DNA from: Nitrospirota bacterium
GTDB taxonomy: Bacteria > Nitrospirota > UBA9217
Direction of reading: 5' to 3'
NCBI GenBank assembly: GCA_963790205.1
Contig: CAWBNQ010000009.1
Location: 1-36,435 of the forward strand
DNA length: 36,435 nt
Part shown: positions 618 to 36,435 of the stretch, in pieces
Layout: every line of letters starts with the position of its first letter
Numbering within the stretch: the stretch's first letter is position 1
The notes under the pieces: model-generated
Seen by the model: the letters and a program-made list of their open reading frames with translations, nothing else
What the model was told of the DNA's origin: nothing
The model's database searches: none
Translations under genes and position numbers: made by a program

Positions 618-1841
618 GGCAGTGATGCGCTGATCCAAGCCGCTGCTGATGTAGCACAGGCACTGTGCGAAGGCAGTAAGCAGGCAGCCCTTTGTTACGT
701 TGTTCCGGAGTGCAACAGCATGGGCGCGGGACTCATGGGCGGAAAGAGTCTCGAAGATTTATTTACGTCTCCTTCGCTCCTTCAGGGACAGAGTCAAAGC
801 AGCGAGACCGATACCGTCATTATTCTCGAAAACGATCTCTTTCGCAGGGGCGACGAAAAAACCGTCAACACATTCCTGAGCAAGGCGAAACACGTCATTA
901 GCATCGATCATCTCATCAACGCGACATCGTCGAGATCGGAAGTGGCCCTGCCTGCCGCAACGTTCTCGGAATCCGACGGCACCCTGGTGAACAACGAAGG
1001 CCGGGCACAGCGATTTTATCAGGTCTTCTCGCCGAATCACGACGTGCGGGAGAGCTGGAAATGGATCCGTGATATAATCACGACATCGGGTCGTAACGAA
1101 GCGATCGCCTGGAATACGCTTGACGATATCGCGACTGCCGTGGCAGCGGCATTTCCGGTGTTAAAACCCATACAGGATATCGCGCCGCGTGCGGATTTTC
1201 GGATATCCGGACAAAAAGTGCCGCGCCAGCCCCATCGTTACAGCGGCCGGACGGCCGTGCTTGCGAACATCACCATGCACGAACCCAAGCCTCCGGATGA
1301 TCCCGACTCCCCTCTCTCGTTCTCAATGGAAGGAAGCGACGGCCTGCCGCCCGCGCCTCTGGTCCCGCGCTACTGGTCGCCCGGATGGAATTCCGTCCAG
1401 GCGTTGAACAAATTTCAGCAGGAAGTCGCCGGTCCGCTCAAAGGCGGAGCTCCGGCCGGCAGATTGATCGAACCGTCACTGACGGTAAAGACGCCAAATT
1501 CCATCGTCACGCCCGAAGCCTTCCGGCCAAAAACAACTGAGTGGCTTATCGTCTCCCTCTTTGAAGTTTTCGGATCGGAAGAGCTGAGTATGCTCTCTCC
1601 CGGCATCGCAGAGCGTGCGCCGAAACCCTATGCTTTGCTCAATTCAGCAGATGCTTCGCGCATCGGGGTACAGGACGCGGACATGATAGAAGTATTGCTT
1701 GCAGATATGGATCAGCAATTCAAGGCAAGGATCGTGTCAGACCTTCCGGCAGGTACGGTTGGCCTCTATGCCGGGACTGCGATGGCATTCAGCGTTACTG
1801 CTCCCGTGTATTGTAAGATCAAAAAGGTATCTTCCAAATGA
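618..1841 (+). CDS. nuoG: NADH:quinone oxidoreductase subunit G, C-terminal part only (5' end degraded or missing)
   Basis: ORF 720..1841 has [34 protein letters not shown] and WSPGWNS motifs of E. coli-type NuoG. The frame extends upstream to ~618 ([16 protein letters not shown]...VPECNSMG). The stop overlaps the nuoH start (ATGA). Confidence 0.9.
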
Positions 1842-2794
1842 ACGACATCATCCTGCATCTGATAATACTTTTCAGCATCCTGATCGCGGTGCTTTCCGTG
1901 GGAGGAGGCCTGATCTGGTACGAGCGGAGGCTCCTGGCGCTCTGGCAGGACCGGTACGGGCCGAACCGCGTGGGTCCGTTCGGCATCCTGCAGGTCGTGG
2001 CCGACATGATCAAGGTTTTCACCAAGGAGGACTGGATACCGCCCTTTGCGGACAAGGCGGTATTCATCATCGCGCCGGCAGTGATCGTCGTCATCGTGCT
2101 CATGTCCTACACCATCATCCCCTTTGCGCCCGGGATCGAGGTCGTGGACTTGAATATCGGACTGCTCTTCTTCCTGGCCATGTCCTCCCTCGGCGTATAT
2201 AGTGTGGCCCTGGCCGGCTGGGCGTCGGATAGCAAGTATTCCCTTCTGGGAGGCCTGCGGGCATCGGCGCAGATGCTGAGCTATGAAGTATTTATGGGAC
2301 TTTCGCTCATGGGAGTGGTTATGCTGGCGGGTTCCTTTAATCTGCGCGTAATCGTCGAAGCGCAGCGCCACATGTGGTTCGCTGTGCCGCAGTTCATCGG
2401 CCTGGTCATCTTCTTTATCGCCGGCATTGCCGAGACGCACCGGCTCCCGTTCGACCTGCCCGAAGCGGAGAGCGAACTGGTGGCCGGGTATCATTCCGAA
2501 TATTCAGGCATGAAGTTCGGCATGTTCTTCGTCGGCGAATATCTCGGCATCGCGCTCATCTCGGCGCTCACGGTCGCGCTTTTTTTCGGAGGTTGGCTGG
2601 GGCCTGTTCTGCCGCCGCTCGCGTGGTTCCTGATCAAGACGCTCGTGTTCATCAGCTTTTTCATCCTGCTCCGGGCTTCGCTTCCCCGGCCGCGGTATGA
2701 TCAGCTCATGTCCTTCGGCTGGAAGATCTTTTTGCCGCTTTCACTGTTGAACTTGTTGGTAACAGGGGCAGTTATTCTATTGAGAAAACATTAA
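1838..2794 (+). CDS. nuoH: NADH:quinone oxidoreductase subunit H
   Basis: ERR...[42 protein letters not shown] and PRPRYDQLM motifs; multi-TM. Confidence 0.97.
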
Positions 2795-2802
2795 CGACGC
2801 TT

Positions 2803-3318
2803 ATGTACAGCATACTCAAAACGATCTGGACGGTCTTCATGACCATGTTCCGAAAACGGGTTACGATCCAGTACCCCGAGGAGCGGCCCTATATCCCTCC
2901 CCGGTGGCGCGGCAGGATCATCCTCTCCCGCGACCCCGACGGACAGGAGCGCTGCGTGGCATGCTACCTCTGTGCAGCGGCATGCCCGGTCGACTGCATC
3001 TCGCTCCAGGCCACGGAGGACGATCACGGGCGCCGGTATCCCGAGTTCTTCCGCATCAACTTTTCGCGCTGCATCTTCTGCGGATACTGCGAAGAGGCAT
3101 GCCCAACGTATGCCATCCAGCTGACGACCGACTTCGAAATGAGCGAATATAAACGAAAGAACCTGGTGTACGAAAAGGAAGACCTGCTCATCAGCGGCCC
3201 GGGCAAGTATCATGATTATAATTTTTACCGGGTCGCCGGTTTGTCTATCAAGGGGAAGGACAAGGGCGAGGCGGAGAACGAGGATAAACCGGTCGACGTG
3301 AAATCCCTGTTGCCCTGA
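2803..3318 (+). CDS. nuoI: NADH:quinone oxidoreductase subunit I (2x[4Fe-4S])
   Basis: [19 protein letters not shown] and [12 protein letters not shown] ferredoxin motifs; operon position. Confidence 0.97.
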
Positions 3319-22049: not shown

Positions 22050-22088
22050 ATTTTCGTACCGATAATAACATGTTAGAGGTTGATTGAT

Positions 22089-22559
22089 ATGATAGCAAAA
22101 CTATGTACAGTGACAACAATGTTGCTGCTTTCAGCGTTGATAATGTTGCCCACAAAGGTGCAAGCTAAATGGGTCCCTCCGATTGCCGACGGTGGTGATG
22201 TTGAACCATCATTGCCATCTGTTCAGGGTTACCTCGTTAGAGTTACTAGTAATGAAATCACTCTCAAAAGAGATAGCCGCGACGGCAAGATGAAAGACAC
22301 TGTAATTGTTCGGCTCCTGCCACGAACCGAATTCTTCTCGGCATATGGTGGCTTTTATAAATCGAACGAGCTACGTTCAGGACAATATGTGTGGGTATGG
22401 TACGTTAATGAAGATCCTAAAAAGGCAGGAACGCCGCCCCAAGCCGCAGTAGTTATGCTCTGGTCAACCGATCCATCCGATAAACCCACGGAAGAAATTC
22501 GATGGCACTTCGATAAAAAGTCGGCAGGTCGGGTAGAACGAAGTGAAACCCACCGCTAA
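22089..22559 (+). CDS. Cassette 1: exported hypothetical protein
   Basis: GAGG RBS, signal peptide ending VQA; the stop abuts attC R''. Confidence 0.75.
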   Translation: MIAKLCTVTTMLLLSALIMLPTKVQAKWVPPIADGGDVEPSLPSVQGYLVRVTSNEITLKRDSRDGKMKDTVIVRLLPRTEFFSAYGGFYKSNELRSGQYVWVWYVNEDPKKAGTPPQAAVVMLWSTDPSDKPTEEIRWHFDKKSAGRVERSETHR

Positions 22560-22619
22560 TTCTAACCATTCGGCTCGAGAGGGTCGCGGAAGCCGCGCCC
22601 CTCAGCCGAGCCGTTAGTT
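22560..22619 (+). other. attC site (canonical-looking)
   Basis: TTCTAAC-cattcg-GCTCGAG...CTCAGC-cgagcc-GTTAGTT: R''/R' AAC/GTT, L''/L' complementary with one extrahelical base, GC-rich central stem. Confidence 0.9.
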
Positions 22620-22649
22620 TAGGCTTAACCCACACGATGAGGTAAAACT

Positions 22650-23147
22650 ATGAGAACGATGCTCCTCGCAACGTTGATTCTTATTCTTTTGACCGCCATG
22701 ACCCTGGCGGTTAGCCCTTCTCAAAAATCTGAGCAAATTTCTCCTGAGGAGTATCGAATTTTCTTGGAGATTGAGAAGTCGCTCGCGAAGGTTGCGAAGA
22801 AATATCAAAAGAATCCCGATGAAGTTCATCAACTGTACCGTAGGATAACCTTGTCAGCAGATACCATCCCTAAATTTGGGAAAGGTGGAGTTTCTATATT
22901 GCGTGACAACATCTATATCGTTAACAGTGAAGAGAAGAATGAACTTGTTCTGGGTGGTGAAAGATGGGTTAGTAGTTTCGGCAATTCACCGGAACTTGTG
23001 ATTCTATCCGGACGTAAAGTTCTTGGCACATTCCCAATATCCACGTTGCCCGATAAAAGTGATTTTATCTTTATTCTGTTCAATGGCAAGAAGGCACAGT
23101 ACCTCGATTGGAAGACATTCGATGGCCAAACCACTTACAGACATTGA
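22650..23147 (+). CDS. Cassette 2: exported hypothetical protein
   Basis: GAGGT RBS, hydrophobic signal peptide, bounded by attC sites. Confidence 0.75.
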   Translation: MRTMLLATLILILLTAMTLAVSPSQKSEQISPEEYRIFLEIEKSLAKVAKKYQKNPDEVHQLYRRITLSADTIPKFGKGGVSILRDNIYIVNSEEKNELVLGGERWVSSFGNSPELVILSGRKVLGTFPISTLPDKSDFIFILFNGKKAQYLDWKTFDGQTTYRH

Positions 23148-23189
23148 AGCTGATAGCATAAGCAATCTAAAGCATAGATCGATAAAAAT

Positions 23190-23249
23190 AACTAACATGC
23201 GGGTCGCGTCCGACGCGCATGGAACGCGCGTCTCACCCGCGCCTTGATA
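23190..23249 (+). other. attC site, degenerate (R' GTT replaced by CTT)
   Basis: AACTAAC-atgcg-GGTCGCGT...CTCACC-cgcgc-CTT(23243); inner stem GACGCGC/GCGCGTC. Confidence 0.75.
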
Positions 23250-23321
23250 AGGGGAAAAAATCCCTCTATGTTGACTAGCAGCAAACTGTCAAAGGGTTTG
23301 CTTAACTTTTAAGAGGTAATC

Positions 23322-24197
23322 ATGAAACGATTTTTGATAGCAAGTTTTGCAATATTGTCTGCATCTTTAGGCATCATGTCTGTCAGTACGGTGGTTAGTT
23401 CTGGCGATAACACTAGCGCAAACCAACAACGTTTTCTCGCCAAGGGTGATGGTACGGTAATCGATCAGACAAACGACCTTGTATGGCAAGCAGCAGATGA
23501 CTCTCAGCCAAGAAGCTGGGCAGATGCTGCTGCCTATTGCAGGAATCTTACGCTCAATAATAAATCGAGCTGGAGGTTGCCTACAAAAGAAGAGTTAAAT
23601 TCGATTGTAGATCAAGAACGGAAACCAGCAATTGATACAAAATATTTTAAGATAAATGGATTAAGATATTGGACCTCAACGGTCTATGACGACAATCCCA
23701 GCTTGAAATGTTTCATATTCTTTCCAACTGGAGCTACCGCCTGCGCTGACAAAATAAACACATTTCTTGCGCGTTGCGTACGCAATGCACATGAAAGCGA
23801 GCATGTATCTGACGGAGAAAGCGACTATGCAAAATGGACCACGTCGTCAAAACTAAAATCAATAGTACGCGATATGGAAGACAACAGAATGTTTCCAAGC
23901 ACAGTAGAGGGGCGCGAAGTTGAAGGCCGTGACAATAGTGGAAAAGTGTATCAATATCGTGCTAAGTTCATTCCATTTTTACCGGATATGCTCTCTTTTA
24001 AATCGCAATGGGGCATTGTTGACAGGTGGTACAAACATTACTCCGGCCAATATATTGAAGAAGGCTACACAGAGTATTCCCACACTACCTTTGTTGATAA
24101 ATTTGGTTTTACCTTACATCAAGCAACTTGGGTGTTGATTTATAGAGAACGGGAACAGAAACAAAACGAGTTCTCTAACAGCAAACCGAATCTTTAG
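23322..24197 (+). CDS. Cassette 3: exported DUF1566 (Lcl C-terminal, C-type-lectin-like fold) protein with an uncharacterised C-terminal domain
   Basis: DGTVIDQTNDLVWQ, SWADAAAYC, WRLPTKEELNSIVD, YWTST and ARCVR are the DUF1566 pattern; signal peptide. Confidence 0.85.
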   Translation: MKRFLIASFAILSASLGIMSVSTVVSSGDNTSANQQRFLAKGDGTVIDQTNDLVWQAADDSQPRSWADAAAYCRNLTLNNKSSWRLPTKEELNSIVDQERKPAIDTKYFKINGLRYWTSTVYDDNPSLKCFIFFPTGATACADKINTFLARCVRNAHESEHVSDGESDYAKWTTSSKLKSIVRDMEDNRMFPSTVEGREVEGRDNSGKVYQYRAKFIPFLPDMLSFKSQWGIVDRWYKHYSGQYIEEGYTEYSHTTFVDKFGFTLHQATWVLIYREREQKQNEFSNSKPNL

Positions 24198-24265
24198 TGG
24201 GTTTGGTAATAATAGTGTCGTGCCTTGATGCTGACAAAACCGCCTCCGATTACGACTAGATATCG

Positions 24266-24321
24266 AACCAACTTGCGCGTCCACAGCGACGCGCCAGACG
24301 GCGGCGCGTGAGGCGCGCGTT
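24266..24321 (+). other. attC site, interrupted immediately after its GTT by IS1182 + MITE (R' tail resumes at 26351, GTTAACC)
   Basis: AACCAAC-ttgcg-CGTCCACA...CGTGAGG-cgcgc-GTT(24319-24321). Confidence 0.8.
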
Positions 24322-26130
24322 GAAGGTGTAGAAAAAGTCATTTTATGCTATACTGACGCCATCGAAACGCATTAAGGAACCACCAAAACCCCTCACCCAC
24401 GGGAGGCGTATGGCGAAGTACAAACACTACGACTATTCGCAAGGCAAGTTCATCCCGATCAGCTTCGACAAACAGATCCTTCCCGGCACTTTCGAGCACA
24501 CCCTCCACTACATCATCGACAACGACCTCGACCTTTCCGTATTTGACCTCCGCTACCAGAACGACGAGACCGGCGCACCGGCATACGACCCCGCGATCCT
24601 GCTCAAAGATCGTCCTCTACGCCTATTCCAAGGGCATCACCTCAAGCCGGAAGATCGCCGATTGCTGCAACGAGAACGTCATCTTCATGGCCCTGTCCGC
24701 CGATACCCGACCGCACTTCACCACCATCGCCGACTTCATCTCCTCAAATGATCAGGAAACGGTGAAGCTCTTCCTCGAAGTGCTCCTGATCTGCGACGAG
24801 ATGGGCCTGATCGGCAAAGAGATGTTCGCCGTGGACGGGTGCAAGCTGCCCTCGAACGCCTCGAAGGAGTGGAGCGGAACCAAGAAAGACCTCGCGCATA
24901 AAAAAGAGAAGATGGAAAAAGCCATCCGGCAGATCATCACGAAACACTAAGGAAAGAGACAGGACCGAGGCAGACAAGGCGGTCATTGAGAAGGAAGAAC
25001 AGTATATAGCCACTCTCAAGGCCAAGATCAAGAAGATCAAGACCTGGCTCAACGACAACGACGACAAGCCGGCCAGCATCAGATGCAAGCCCCGAAAGAG
25101 CAACATTACCGATAATGAGAGCGCCACGATGAAGACCTCGCACGGGGTTGTCCAGGGGTACAACGGCGTAGCGATGGTCGACAGCAAACACCAGGTCGTC
25201 GTCCATGCTGAGGCGACCGGGGAGTCGGAAACCGCGATACTGAAACCGATGGTCGAAGAAACCCGTGAGAACTTCAGCTCGATCGGGAAAGAAGAAGACA
25301 TCTTCAAAAAGACCAAGCTGTCAGGGGACACCGGCTTCCACTCCGAAAAGAACATGGAGATGTTGATCGAACAGGGCATCGACGCATACATCGCGGACAA
25401 CAAGTTCCGTCACCGCGATCCCAGATACTCAACTGCCGACAGACACAAGGAGCGTTTCAATAAGGAAGTCGCTAAACGATTCGACCGAGCCATCATCTTC
25501 CAACCCCGCGACTTCACGGTGAGCCCGGACAAGAGCTTCTGCATCTGCCCGGCCGGCAAACGGATGTACAAATGCGGCAATGCGATCCATAACGGACTGC
25601 ACGCCATCAAGTACCACGGGACCAAGAGAGATTGCATCCCTTGCCTGGTCCGGGCGCAGTGCATGAAGAACCCCGACGTGACCGTAACCCGTCAGTTCGC
25701 CCACTTTACGGGAAAGACCGACCAAAAGACCAAGACCTTCACGCAGAAAATGCGGGAGAAGATAGACTCGGTAGCAGGCAAGCTGATCTACGGACGAAGG
25801 ATGGCAACAGTCGAACCCGTCTTTGCCGACATTCGATCGAGTCTTGGCCTCGATCGATTCAGCCTAAGAGGAAAAAAGAAGGTCAGCATCCAGTGGCGGC
25901 TCTACTGCATCGTTCACAATCTTCTGAAGGTGCATCGATACGGGCCGGGATTCGCGTGAGAAGCAGAAGCGAAGGGCAGCAAAGAGCAGTAGATGAAAGG
26001 CAACCCGGATAGAAATCGGGATGTGACGAAGCCAATCATCAAGCTGAACCAATAATCTGAACAGTAGAATAGATCAAAGACGATAAACTGAAGAAAGAGC
26101 CTTTCGCAAAATGACTTTTTCTACAGACTC
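24322..26130 (+). mobile_element. IS1182-family insertion sequence (1809 bp), 23-bp terminal IRs, GTT target duplication
   Basis: IRL GAAGGTGTAGAAAAAGTCATTTT (24322-24344) versus IRR AAAATGACTTTTTCTACAGACTC (26108-26130), 20/23 match; GTT at 24319-21 and 26131-33. Confidence 0.9.
24410..25959 (+). CDS. IS1182-family DDE transposase (two single-base insertions, ~24607 and ~24948)
   Basis: DUF772-type N-terminus (GAPAYDPAILLK/IVLYAYSKGITSSRKI, RPHFTTIADF), AVDGCKL, TDNESA.MK, QGYN, GDTGF, Cys-rich insert, RRMATVEPVFADI, HNLLK; GGGAGG RBS. Confidence 0.9.
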
Positions 26131-26133
26131 GTT

Positions 26134-26350
26134 GAGTCTGTAGGAAAACCCCCAAAAGGGCTCATTTTCGCCCTTAAGGGCAGCGACGAGATTTCACTGA
26201 TAATAATAAGAATAGCGGTGAGCGCGATTCTAAGCCCGGCTGGCGAGCTTTATCTCGTTTAGCCACCATCGAGAGACATCACGCGCGATTAATCGCGTTA
26301 AACGAAGCCTGGTGCGTCGGCACTTTAAAAGGGACTTATTCTACAGACTC
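26134..26350. mobile_element. 217-bp non-autonomous MITE with IS1182-type ends, GTT duplication
   Basis: Begins GAGTCTGTAG and ends CTACAGACTC (identical to the IS right-end tip); GTT on both sides; no ORF; internal perfect palindrome CGCGATTAATCGCG (26284-26297). Confidence 0.85.
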
Positions 26351-26372
26351 GTTAACCCGATTCGGAGAGCAT

Positions 26373-27191
26373 ATGAAGAAAAAAACGATCTTATTTTTTG
26401 CTTGGTTCATCTTGGTGTCGTCCACGAGTTACGCAATGGATGCCAAACAATTTGACAGTTTGATGACAAACATCCACGAAGGGAAATTTGATTTAGTTGA
26501 AAGTTCCTTGCGTACGAATGAGACACTCCTTGGCAAGGACCCCGAATATTACGTCGTCCTGCTGAATTACGTGTTAGCCAGCTACAATCAAACGGGAATA
26601 GTTGCGGCAAAAGGAGCACCGCAACAAGATGATGTAGCCGTACGGGATCCGAAGACGGGTAAATCAGTCGGCTTTATCGGTCAACGCGCAGGACATGATG
26701 AAAAGTTGGTTGTTGACGGCATATCACGGGCAAATAAATCTCTGCCATTCTTTAAATCGAGGCTCGACATTCGTTTCGGCATCATTGCAGCGGCGGCGGA
26801 AATCAAACGATGGGATCTTCTTGGAGACCAGTTAGTAGAAACAGTGAACGTATCGAAAGAAATTGACAACAAATGGACATGGGGCTCCATTAACTCGATG
26901 TCAGGTGAGCCTGAGACATTTATGCTGGAAAATATTCAGGGACAGATTTCGTATCTCTTTAGAGCGGACGATCCAACTGCGGATGATGCACTCATTCGAG
27001 CTTCGGAAGCACTGATCAAGTGTTACCCGGAGATAACTTATGGGTATTCAAATTTGGGAGTACTCTACCTGTCTAAAAAAGAATACGATAAGGCCGACAG
27101 TTATTTAAAGCAAGCGCTTGCGATTGACCCCAACGATGAGATCGTTAAGGGAAACATTGAGTTACTTAAAAAGAACCGTAAAGGTAAATGA
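26373..27191 (+). CDS. Cassette 4: exported protein with C-terminal TPR
   Basis: Signal peptide (SYA|M); YSNLGVLYLSKKEYDKADSYLKQALAIDPND is a TPR consensus. Confidence 0.85.
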   Translation: MKKKTILFFAWFILVSSTSYAMDAKQFDSLMTNIHEGKFDLVESSLRTNETLLGKDPEYYVVLLNYVLASYNQTGIVAAKGAPQQDDVAVRDPKTGKSVGFIGQRAGHDEKLVVDGISRANKSLPFFKSRLDIRFGIIAAAAEIKRWDLLGDQLVETVNVSKEIDNKWTWGSINSMSGEPETFMLENIQGQISYLFRADDPTADDALIRASEALIKCYPEITYGYSNLGVLYLSKKEYDKADSYLKQALAIDPNDEIVKGNIELLKKNRKGK

Positions 27192-27212
27192 CCACTTACT
27201 GTTGGAAGTTCT

Positions 27213-27271
27213 AATCTGCCATTGGGATCGAGAGAGTCGCAAAGACCGGCCCCTCAGCCGAGCCGTTGTAC
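27213..27271 (+). other. attC site, degenerate left arm; relative of the 22560 site
   Basis: The 19-mer GCCCCTCAGCCGAGCCGTT (27249-27267) is identical to 22597-22615; left arm CCATTGGGATCGAGAG resembles CCATTCGGCTCGAGAG but R'' AAC is lost. Confidence 0.75.
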
Positions 27272-27286
27272 ATGGAGGAATTTTTT

Positions 27287-27661
27287 ATGAACGCTACTCA
27301 GCTACCCTTCCTCGTAGAAGGGATCCTGATTTTAGCGAGTATGCTCTTCGGACTTCTTCTTCACCGGGCAGGAAAACCTTATGGTAAAGTGAAACTGGTC
27401 ATTCACTTGTTTTTATTCACATGGTTCACCGTGGGCTTTGCCTTTATACTGTACGGGCTTTTAAAAATTGATACAATGAAGGTAATGTGGATTCCCGTTG
27501 TTACGATGGGGTTGATGATTCTGACTCAACTTGGTACCGGAATCCTGATGATAGCTTCTAAGAAAGCAGGAAAGGTACTTCCGAGGATCCACATTATATC
27601 GGCAATTTTGTTGATTTTATCCGATATCTGTGCTTACATCATCACAGGGCATCGATCGTAA
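27287..27661 (+). CDS. Cassette 5: small four-TM membrane protein
   Basis: GGAGG RBS just after attC GTT; four hydrophobic helices, with His residues in KLVIHL and PRIHI. Confidence 0.75.
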   Translation: MNATQLPFLVEGILILASMLFGLLLHRAGKPYGKVKLVIHLFLFTWFTVGFAFILYGLLKIDTMKVMWIPVVTMGLMILTQLGTGILMIASKKAGKVLPRIHIISAILLILSDICAYIITGHRS

Positions 27662-27789: not shown

Positions 27790-28224
27790 ATGAATAAGAA
27801 TTTTTTTGGACTGATTATACTGTCGATCTTAATGTCCGGACCAGTATATGCCGCAGATTGGATATTTTGCGCGAATGAAGGTACGCTTTGTGATTTTACG
27901 AGTGTAAAAGCAGTACGATATGGCGCGGATGAAAAATTCGCATACAGAGTTTCCTCACATGGCGTAAGTTGCAACAATAAAGAATTCGGCGATCCGGCAA
28001 CCGGGATAGTGAAACATTGCGATAAAGCTAACTTATCGCAGTGGAAATTCTGTTCAAATGAAAACGGCCGCTGTGATTTCAAGGGTGTAAAAGCTGTACG
28101 GTATGGCGCAGAGGGAAGATACGACTACAGAATCTATTCGGACGGCGTAAATTGCAATAATAATGAATTAGGTGATCCGGCGCATGGGATAGTGAAACAT
28201 TGCTATACAGCGGATCTACGATAA
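27790..28224 (+). CDS. Exported Cys-rich protein made of two tandem ~60-aa repeats (putative lectin-like)
   Basis: Signal peptide; two copies of W.FC.NE...CDF..VKAVRYGA......R..S.GV.CNN.E.GDPA.GIVKHC. Confidence 0.8.
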   Translation: MNKNFFGLIILSILMSGPVYAADWIFCANEGTLCDFTSVKAVRYGADEKFAYRVSSHGVSCNNKEFGDPATGIVKHCDKANLSQWKFCSNENGRCDFKGVKAVRYGAEGRYDYRIYSDGVNCNNNELGDPAHGIVKHCYTADLR

Positions 28225-33849: not shown

Positions 33850-33913
33850 CGCTATCGCTCCCTTTTTATCAAGGAAAGGGCCCGCCCCGCTGAGAACGGG
33901 CCTCTTTTATTTT

Positions 33914-34369
33914 CTATCTTCTCCATCCTGCCCATGAGGGAACGCCCGTGCTGTCCCGCAGGACGAGGACACTGTCGCCTTTTTTGCACTCCGCCGCGAT
34001 GATGGCTGGTTTGCCATCGAAGGTTATCCGCGATCCCTTCACGTCGATCTTGTCGCCTTTTTCAATTTTGACGTCCTGCCGCTCGATGTACCATTCCGGG
34101 CCGAGATGAACGGCGATGGTCTCCTTATCTGTCTTCAGCACGAGATGGACACCGGCGTACATCCCCTTCCTCGGCGTTATCTTGTCCACGGACTCAACGA
34201 CGCCTGAAACAGTTTCCACCGTTGCCGGGTTGTACATCCTCTGGTAAGACGAGCCCATGCCCCATCCACCACTCCCGCGCCCGCCTTTCGACGGGCCCGC
34301 AAGGCCGATTGAAGAGACAAAAAAAACTGATAGCGCAAATCCCACGATGACAATTCTTGCCGTTCTCAT
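33914..34369 (-). CDS. Exported OB-fold-like protein, copy 1
   Basis: Signal peptide, Gly-rich GSGGWG, YNPATVETVSG...GVHLVLKT...VHLGPEWY...KGDKI.VKGSR; AGGAGG RBS. Confidence 0.8.
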   Translation of the reverse strand: MRTARIVIVGFALSVFFVSSIGLAGPSKGGRGSGGWGMGSSYQRMYNPATVETVSGVVESVDKITPRKGMYAGVHLVLKTDKETIAVHLGPEWYIERQDVKIEKGDKIDVKGSRITFDGKPAIIAAECKKGDSVLVLRDSTGVPSWAGWRR

Positions 34370-35999: not shown

Positions 36000-36059
36000 A
36001 AGAGGATCTCCCAACAAATCGGCCCCGCCCCGGCTCAGAACGGGGCCGCTTGATTTTAT

Positions 36060-36435
36060 TTACTTCCTCCAGCCCGCCCATGCGGGAATTCCGCTACCGT
36101 CTCTGAGAACGAGGGTGCTGTCGCCCTTCTTGATCTCAGCGGCGATAAGAGCAGGCTTGCTGGCAAAAGTCACCCGCGAGCCCTTCACCCCAATCTTGTC
36201 GCCTTTTTCGAGCTTCATATCCTGACGCTCTATGTACCATTCCGGTCCGACGTGAACCGAGATCGCCTCCTTCTCCGTCTTGAGCACGACGTGAATACCG
36301 GAGTTCATTCCCTTCATGGGCGTAATCTTATCCACCGATTCGATGACACCCGACACGGTCTCCACCGTTGCCGGGTTGTACATCCTGTTATACTGCGACC
36401 CCATGCCCCAGCCGCCGCTGCCGCGCCAGCCCTTC
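36060..36435 (-). CDS. Exported OB-fold-like protein, copy 2 (5' end beyond the window)
   Basis: Close paralogue of 33914..34369 (RMYNPATVETVSGV.ESVDKITP.KGM, GPEWYIERQD.K.EKGDKI, WAGWR). Confidence 0.85.
   Translation of the reverse strand, partial: KGWRGSGGWGMGSQYNRMYNPATVETVSGVIESVDKITPMKGMNSGIHVVLKTEKEAISVHVGPEWYIERQDMKLEKGDKIGVKGSRVTFASKPALIAAEIKKGDSTLVLRDGSGIPAWAGWRK

Follow-up and report, generated by a model that had tools for sequence, protein, structure and literature searches.

An IS1182-family insertion sequence and a 217-bp MITE lie one behind the other at the crossover triplet of a single integron attC site in a Nitrospirota genome, and the insertion sequence belongs to a lineage that very probably targets the GTT of attC sites. 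More than 100 insertions of the lineage (kin included) were collected, and 66 of 101 targets scored as attC, which bears out the earlier note on this DNA in its proposal of an attC-targeting DDE lineage within IS1182. Insertion at the attC GTT is probably led by the sequence of the target, with the attC hairpin acting as a booster.

Two elements at one attC site

The window (the whole stretch of 36,435 nucleotides that was analysed) contains the following features around the two elements.

22560 to 22619, plus strand: first attC of the integrase-less array, detected by the covariance model and a member of its training set
23190 to 23249, plus strand: attC with a G-to-C change at the crossover (CTT), likely inactive (37.3 bits)
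23322 to 24197, plus strand: upstream cassette gene, 291 aa, with an Lcl C-terminal domain (ORF and Pfam)
24266 to 24321, plus strand: attC (R'' AACCAAC, L'' box, variable stem, L' box, spacer, R' GTT), from the covariance model
24319 to 24321, plus strand: GTT crossover triplet, first copy of the 3-bp target duplication, read from the sequence
24322 to 26130, plus strand: IS1182-family insertion sequence, 1809 bp, in cassette direction, with imperfect 23-bp terminal inverted repeats (20/23)
24410 to 25959, plus strand: transposase pseudogene (DUF772 and DDE_Tnp_1_6) with +1 frameshifts near 24601 and 24948
26131 to 26133, plus strand: GTT, second copy, separating the IS and the MITE, read from the sequence
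26134 to 26350, plus strand: non-coding MITE, 217 bp, of the same clade as the IS, with a 217-218-bp family in other Nitrospirota genomes
26351 to 26357, plus strand: GTT (third copy) and AACC, the probable original core site and start of the next cassette, judged from cassette anatomy
26373 to 27191, plus strand: downstream cassette gene, 272 aa, with a C-terminal TPR; the IS and the MITE are formally within its cassette
27209 to 27271, plus strand: degenerate attC ending the TPR cassette (R'' AAT, 5-nt insertion; 17.4 bits, E 0.059)

On recheck, every coordinate of the order that the earlier note had claimed (attC-GTT, IS, GTT, MITE, GTT-AACC) was exact. The four attC sites (22560-22619, 23190-23249, 24266-24325 and the degenerate 27209-27271) run in the same direction, no intI gene was found in the window, and the three IntI genes of the genome are all located on other contigs; the array is a CALIN (an attC cluster without an integrase). 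It occupies 22080-27661 and holds about five cassettes (three ORFs without a Pfam match, one Lcl_C and one TPR), most of whose ORFs have N-termini that look signal-peptide-like by eye, and no attC was found in the window beyond 27661. The CTT site at 23190-23249 likely locks its two neighbouring cassettes together. Further along, a 144-aa ORF without a Pfam match (27790-28224) contains two 183-nt repeats with Cys pairs, and two paralogous small genes (33910-34369 and 36056-36404) are 74% alike across 300 nt.

The 4.34-Mb assembly contains one copy of the IS and one of the MITE. Short-read contigs from a related organism span the attC-IS junction; among sequencing runs, the best share of the window stretch was 0.11, and four examined runs yielded relatives only. 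A DNA search of 64 family genomes with the downstream cassette gave attC matches only and no empty allele of the site. A scan for promoters and terminators was at chance level (12 vs 8.9).

The interrupted site

To score the site, a covariance model was built from the aligned bottom strands of 27 element-free attC sites selected by a structural heuristic: 17 from other contigs of the same genome, of which several adjoin its three IntI genes, one from the window and nine from related loci. The strict version of the heuristic scan gave 2 sites, and the relaxed version was used for the collection. In the training alignment the L helix covaries in 8/10 pairs. The interrupted site (24266-24325), which is absent from the training set, scored 55.8 bits (E 5e-11) with one L-box mismatch; 24266-24321 is thus an attC, as the earlier note had called it, and it is of the same family as the attC sites adjoining the IntI genes of the genome. 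By plain folding its structure is modest (z -1.83; 8/200 shuffles were equally good). The complete attC is retained to the left of the element, in agreement with the suggestion that insertion leaves the fold intact. At E<0.01 the model detects about 38 sites genome-wide, against 112,356 GTT triplets, and an element that was merely GTT-specific would therefore reach an attC with p ~3e-4.

The insertion sequence and its transposase

The element belongs to the IS1182 family, judging from its sequence. Hallmarks of the family are present at the locus, with a 23-bp inverted repeat with 3 mismatches and a 3-bp GTT duplication. The left end is GAAGGTGTAG, which matches the right end at 20/23 positions; the version in the earlier note, GAGTCTGTAG, was wrong. 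The transposase and an intact relative of 515 aa share about 81% identity; the intact relative at locus L010 scored 278.9 bits on NF033551 (cut-off 270), and the transposase fragments of the window match the same model below the cut-off. Nine residues (D142, D232, D255, D304, D327, D334, E466, Y458 and R461) are invariant in 73/73 aligned relatives, and the catalytic DDE triad is presumably drawn from the D and E residues among them. Four Cys (C377, C406, C409 and C415) are likewise invariant and may mark an insertion domain that binds metal. An AlphaFold model of the transposase reached a pLDDT of 38.8, a PDB sequence search gave no match, the Pfam matches of the ORFs of the element included no reverse transcriptase or maturase domain, and no named IS element occurred among 10 protein clusters.

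The frameshifts could be real or long-read errors; the extra base at 24601 is missing in the contigs of relatives. The window carries a pseudogene copy and the assembly yielded no intact one, so that the element would at present move only if complemented. In other genomes, relatives occur as identical or near-identical copies at several sites, which suggests recent transposition.

Relatives of the element and their targets

Relatives were gathered from 42 genome loci, 30 loci from 25/401 Nitrospirota genomes, the best 80 of 561 metagenome matches and one viral contig, a sample that is biased to the best-scoring relatives and in which kin are not independent. The 158 transposase matches gave 135 non-redundant rows with at least one end, and 7 without any end; the outgroups L073 and L074 (27% identity) and the flipped L043 were excluded from the counts. 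Ends were placed by an inverted-repeat motif with no GTT in it, and a blind inverted-repeat search agrees for many. The closest relatives come from Nitrospirota genomes. Elsewhere, viral contigs gave 1 locus, and none with a second query, phages gave one distant match, and plasmids gave 3 records.

The elements are 1669-1866 bp long (n=91). Their left flanks end in GTT in 114/116 cases, the exceptions being an intron in the end and a contig edge, their right flanks begin with GTT in 100/103, and GTT is on both sides in 86/90. After removal of tandem copies and flanks <100 nt, 101 targets were left. An attC structure test was passed by 58 of these, compared with 96/3000 genomic GTT and 71/2020 shuffles, and its strict version by 43/101 compared with 16/3000 genomic GTT. 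The corresponding Fisher p of 3e-53 is overstated, as kin are not independent, and the enrichment is inflated by an unknown factor because selection removes insertions in genes. A covariance-model match ended at the junction in 47 of the 98 targets searched, 40 of them at E<=0.1; with the structure test and the model combined, 66/101 targets score as attC. The search of the genome and related MAGs for further copies, which the earlier note had called for, thus found attC-GTT flanks to be enriched.

The orientation and the downstream side are equally regular. At all attC targets except L138 the transposase runs in cassette direction. In the right flank, GTT is followed by R in 90/95 cases (background 34%), and an RBS with an ATG-started ORF lies within 80-90 nt in 23/78, compared with 156/3000. 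Outside the main counts, GTT-flanked members occur in the phyla of Desulfospira (22/301 genomes) and of a spirochaete (13/251), as well as in Pseudoalteromonas, mostly at the same junction, with single-base exceptions at L205 and L209. The cultured Desulfospira joergensenii encodes an intact transposase of this kind (WP_022665671.1). Three spirochaete members in one array (L222, L234 and L238; G853) differ in their terminal bases (CTGGCTGTCG) and still show a GTT duplication behind attC-like arms.

Neither test identifies the remaining 35/101 targets as attC. Of these, about 10 have a hairpin or are intron-interrupted, about 25 have no strong hairpin, and a few lie in open frames (4/17). Group II intron-like sequences were seen in the same attC or in an IS end at four loci (L025:1790-1885, L034:2050-2183, L049:1700-1808 and L022:2250-2351); they are putative group II intron ends. 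If so, two kinds of parasite, the IS and the intron-like sequences, would occupy one attC site.

How the target is read

In the consensus of the targets, T[CGT]A occupies -14 to -11, position -4 is Y (98/101) and R follows the GTT (90/95). The non-scoring targets largely keep it: T[CGT]A-N7/8-GTT is present in 27/35 of them compared with 10,493/112,274 genomic GTT (9%), and Y at -4 in 34/35. At L138 (2042-2121), the sole such case among the 101 targets, the element lies at the R'' foot with the array on the other strand, and the bottom strand there carries the same arm motif. We therefore favor readout of the arm as duplex DNA, given the motif at off-target sites, the opposite arm at L138 and the fact that attC stays intact next to a direct repeat of GTT.

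The transposase would accordingly be expected to read duplex DNA at the right arm of attC, where the L' box (T[CGT]A) is followed after 7-8 bases by Y-GTT-R. The hairpin of attC or its context probably strengthens the preference, and a staggered 3-nt cut around the GTT would join the element ends. Since the GTT occurs twice and the attC is kept complete on the left, strand transfer would engage the two strands of a single site and not the arms of a folded hairpin. The GTT target would be rebuilt after each insertion, and further elements could therefore stack.

Alternatively, the transposase might recognize an extruded attC hairpin or cruciform and insert at its 3' foot, with the off-target motif being secondary; the earlier note had likewise proposed recognition of the hairpin. 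About 38 attC sites compete in the genome with about 740-3000 motif-only sites, yet two thirds of the insertions are in attC; hairpins with z<-2 occur in 46/66 attC targets; and IS1272 and TnSha1 are described as targeting DNA secondary structures in two reports (PMC4923244, PMC5678879). As the sole reading, however, the hairpin does not account for the 25/35 non-scoring targets without a strong hairpin (median z -0.4, equal to that of controls); the arm motif is kept in 27 of the 35. In addition, the product retains the whole attC and a direct GTT repeat, whereas IS1272, as described in these reports, removes the stem-loop without creating a duplication. Recognition of the hairpin as the primary signal is therefore unlikely, although the excess of motif sites over attC indicates that the fold or a GC-rich context probably adds preference to a sequence-led choice.

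It is less probable still that the elements have only a short-motif preference (about TNA-N7/8-YGTTR) and no specialization for attC, the excess of attC being due to selection and to neutral intergenic landing. Off-target insertions do exist (among them 3-4/8 Desulfospira copies, and one within a gene, L012), and most motif sites are inside genes: 352/500 motif-matched controls were in open frames, compared with 4/17 and 3/39 targets. However, if only motif sites outside long frames (30%) were allowed, hundreds would still stand against about 38 attC, and the preferred motif is the conserved IntI-binding arm, fitting the attC types present locally in groups as diverse as Nitrospirota, Pseudoalteromonas and spirochaetes. 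That an integron integrase inserts circularized elements into attC, or that the stack is an assembly artefact, is very improbable: the junction coincides with the triplet at which IntI crosses over and the genome has three IntI, the frameshifts could be long-read errors and the flanks of L139-L141 are swapped around an identical IS, but the lineage has terminal inverted repeats and a full IS1182 transposase, its duplication varies by transposase sub-lineage (GTT, GCT, TGC, CTAG), off-attC insertions and flipped members occur, and independent short-read contigs span the junction.

Clade structure and target switches

In a tree of 36 natural ORFs, the members form a 27-row clade (support 100/100), and in a second tree the clade comprises 38/50 rows (SH-aLRT 100), with imperfect outgroup rooting. 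GTT members are on both sides of the first fork of the clade. Flipped members with AAC on both sides were found at L043 (1302-1304), L161 (1696), L164 (2869-4326) and L221, and L227 (2520) is also AAC-flanked. Such members appear to have inserted at GTT in reverse, a habit that would have arisen in at least two branches. The covariance model, built mostly from Nitrospirota-type sites, gave no attC match at four flipped loci, where the flanks are attC-like by eye only.

A nested branch with the same type of inverted repeat duplicates GCT or TGC/TTGC (L188:1297-3154, L204, L191:1328-3158 on the minus strand, and L197 by its ends), has no attC close by and may represent a natural target switch. 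Outside the clade, CTAG or CACT duplications were seen where ends could be placed; several outgroup ends were not placeable. None of the 9 non-GTT or outgroup loci gave an attC match.

The MITE and the order of insertion

The MITE contains no ORF of 70 aa and has GTT on both sides. Matches to it were found in 11/61 genomes, including that of the window, and the relatives with a located left end adjoin an attC match in 6/6 cases, with a seventh case in L013. The description of the MITE in the earlier note as cognate to the IS holds for the clade but not for the adjacent copy: the ends of the MITE align better to other clade members (46 and 50) than to the adjacent IS (20 and 34). The two share only the terminal 15-25 nt, and blastn of the MITE against the adjacent IS gave no match. 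A deletion derivative of this IS is ruled out, as the sub-terminal sequence is not common to both. Covariation in favor of a structured RNA was weak (4/57 pairs).

In the window, the MITE likely came first and the IS later. Stacked elements also occur elsewhere, with two identical IS in L010, MITE/IS/MITE in L132, an IS and a MITE remnant in L023, and a further case in L159. The remnant (L023:3992-4026) is a 32-bp MITE right end 3' of the IS that begins at a MITE-internal GTT, possibly reflecting an adjacent deletion.

Predicted movement with cassettes

IntI strand exchange falls between the G and the TT of the GTT. The first bases of the element (GAR...) replace the RRRY of the core site, and a full GTTRRRY is present in 49/101 targets; in the window, the core-like junctions are GTTGAAG (IS) and GTTGAGT (MITE). 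The element would thereby come to stand at the head of the downstream cassette, with which it could be excised and re-inserted. Given the point of exchange and the untouched attC fold, it would be expected on geometrical grounds to hitch-hike with the downstream TPR cassette, whose own attC is the degenerate one.

Two loci, L139 and L141, have the same IS and downstream flank and different upstream sequences; they were not counted as cassette movement. L139 and L140 have a common upstream side and the IS copies of L139-L141 are identical to 1 nt, so chimeric assembly or copy-to-copy recombination explains the swap equally well. A more ambitious reading, that a DDE clade spanning several phyla reads the L'-R' arm bound by IntI, inserts at the crossover, spares the site, supplies a near-consensus core and is spread by IntI, is tentative, and we rate its chances as somewhat short of even.

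Relation to known systems and significance

The attC-targeting elements named in the relevant parts of the literature are the IS1111-attC group and the group IIC-attC introns (PMC9137128, PMC12444791, PMC11089894, PMC3575428, PMC7232470, PMC11187229, PMC3001079, PMC8876359). The former (ISPa21, ISPst6 and ISKpn4, of the IS110/IS1111 family) is described there as a monophyletic group that targets the attC of cassette arrays (PMC3001079, PMC11187229). Its members have DEDD transposases (IS110-type) and insert antisense, near the 5' end of attC, whereas the lineage described here is DDE and inserts at the R' GTT in cassette direction. The group IIC-attC introns are portrayed in the corresponding passages as retroelements that use the bottom strand, insert antisense and split the gene from its attC (PMC3001079, PMC8876359). 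Like the present lineage, they are specialized for attC, and they probably occur in the same arrays, sometimes at the same site (L025, L034, L049).

Within its own family, the lineage resembles IS1272/TnSha1 (Staphylococcus, NF033551) in having DUF772 and DDE_Tnp_1_6, a length of about 1.8 kb and terminal inverted repeats. According to the parts of the reports concerned, IS1272 targets stem-loops (PMC5678879, PMC4923244), and palindrome-targeting members of IS1182 are attributed to Siguier 2015 (cited in PMC4923244). IS1272 is described as deleting part of the stem-loop; here the hairpin stays intact, a 3-bp GTT is duplicated and attC is the chosen target. Insertion sequences are frequent in arrays, with reported values of 12% of CALIN and 23% of complete integrons (PMC4889954); that study counts IS in arrays, and in the parts of it consulted IS1182 has 0 occurrences and no site-specific target is named. 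Searches of the full-text literature returned no report of an IS1182 group that targets attC, in accordance with the statement of the earlier note that none was known. The attC-GTT habit thus seems to add a hitherto undescribed target specificity to the IS1182 family.

As characterized in the cited parts of the literature, both known kinds of attC-targeting element insert antisense and are RNA-guided. If true, a DDE transposase that works in the attC niche by protein alone would have solved the same problem independently and would offer a tractable model for target reading by DDE enzymes, for which the switches within the clade (GTT to GCT/TGC, and the flips in orientation) are ready contrasts. 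For integron biology, the lineage may interrupt or re-route the transcription of arrays, its repeats could delete or split arrays, and its elements could move with cassettes; it would also explain the transposase 'cassettes' reported in arrays by automatic annotation. If the more ambitious reading is true, the lineage would be a parasite specialized for cassette arrays that stacks on itself, and would offer a natural means of attC-specific delivery.
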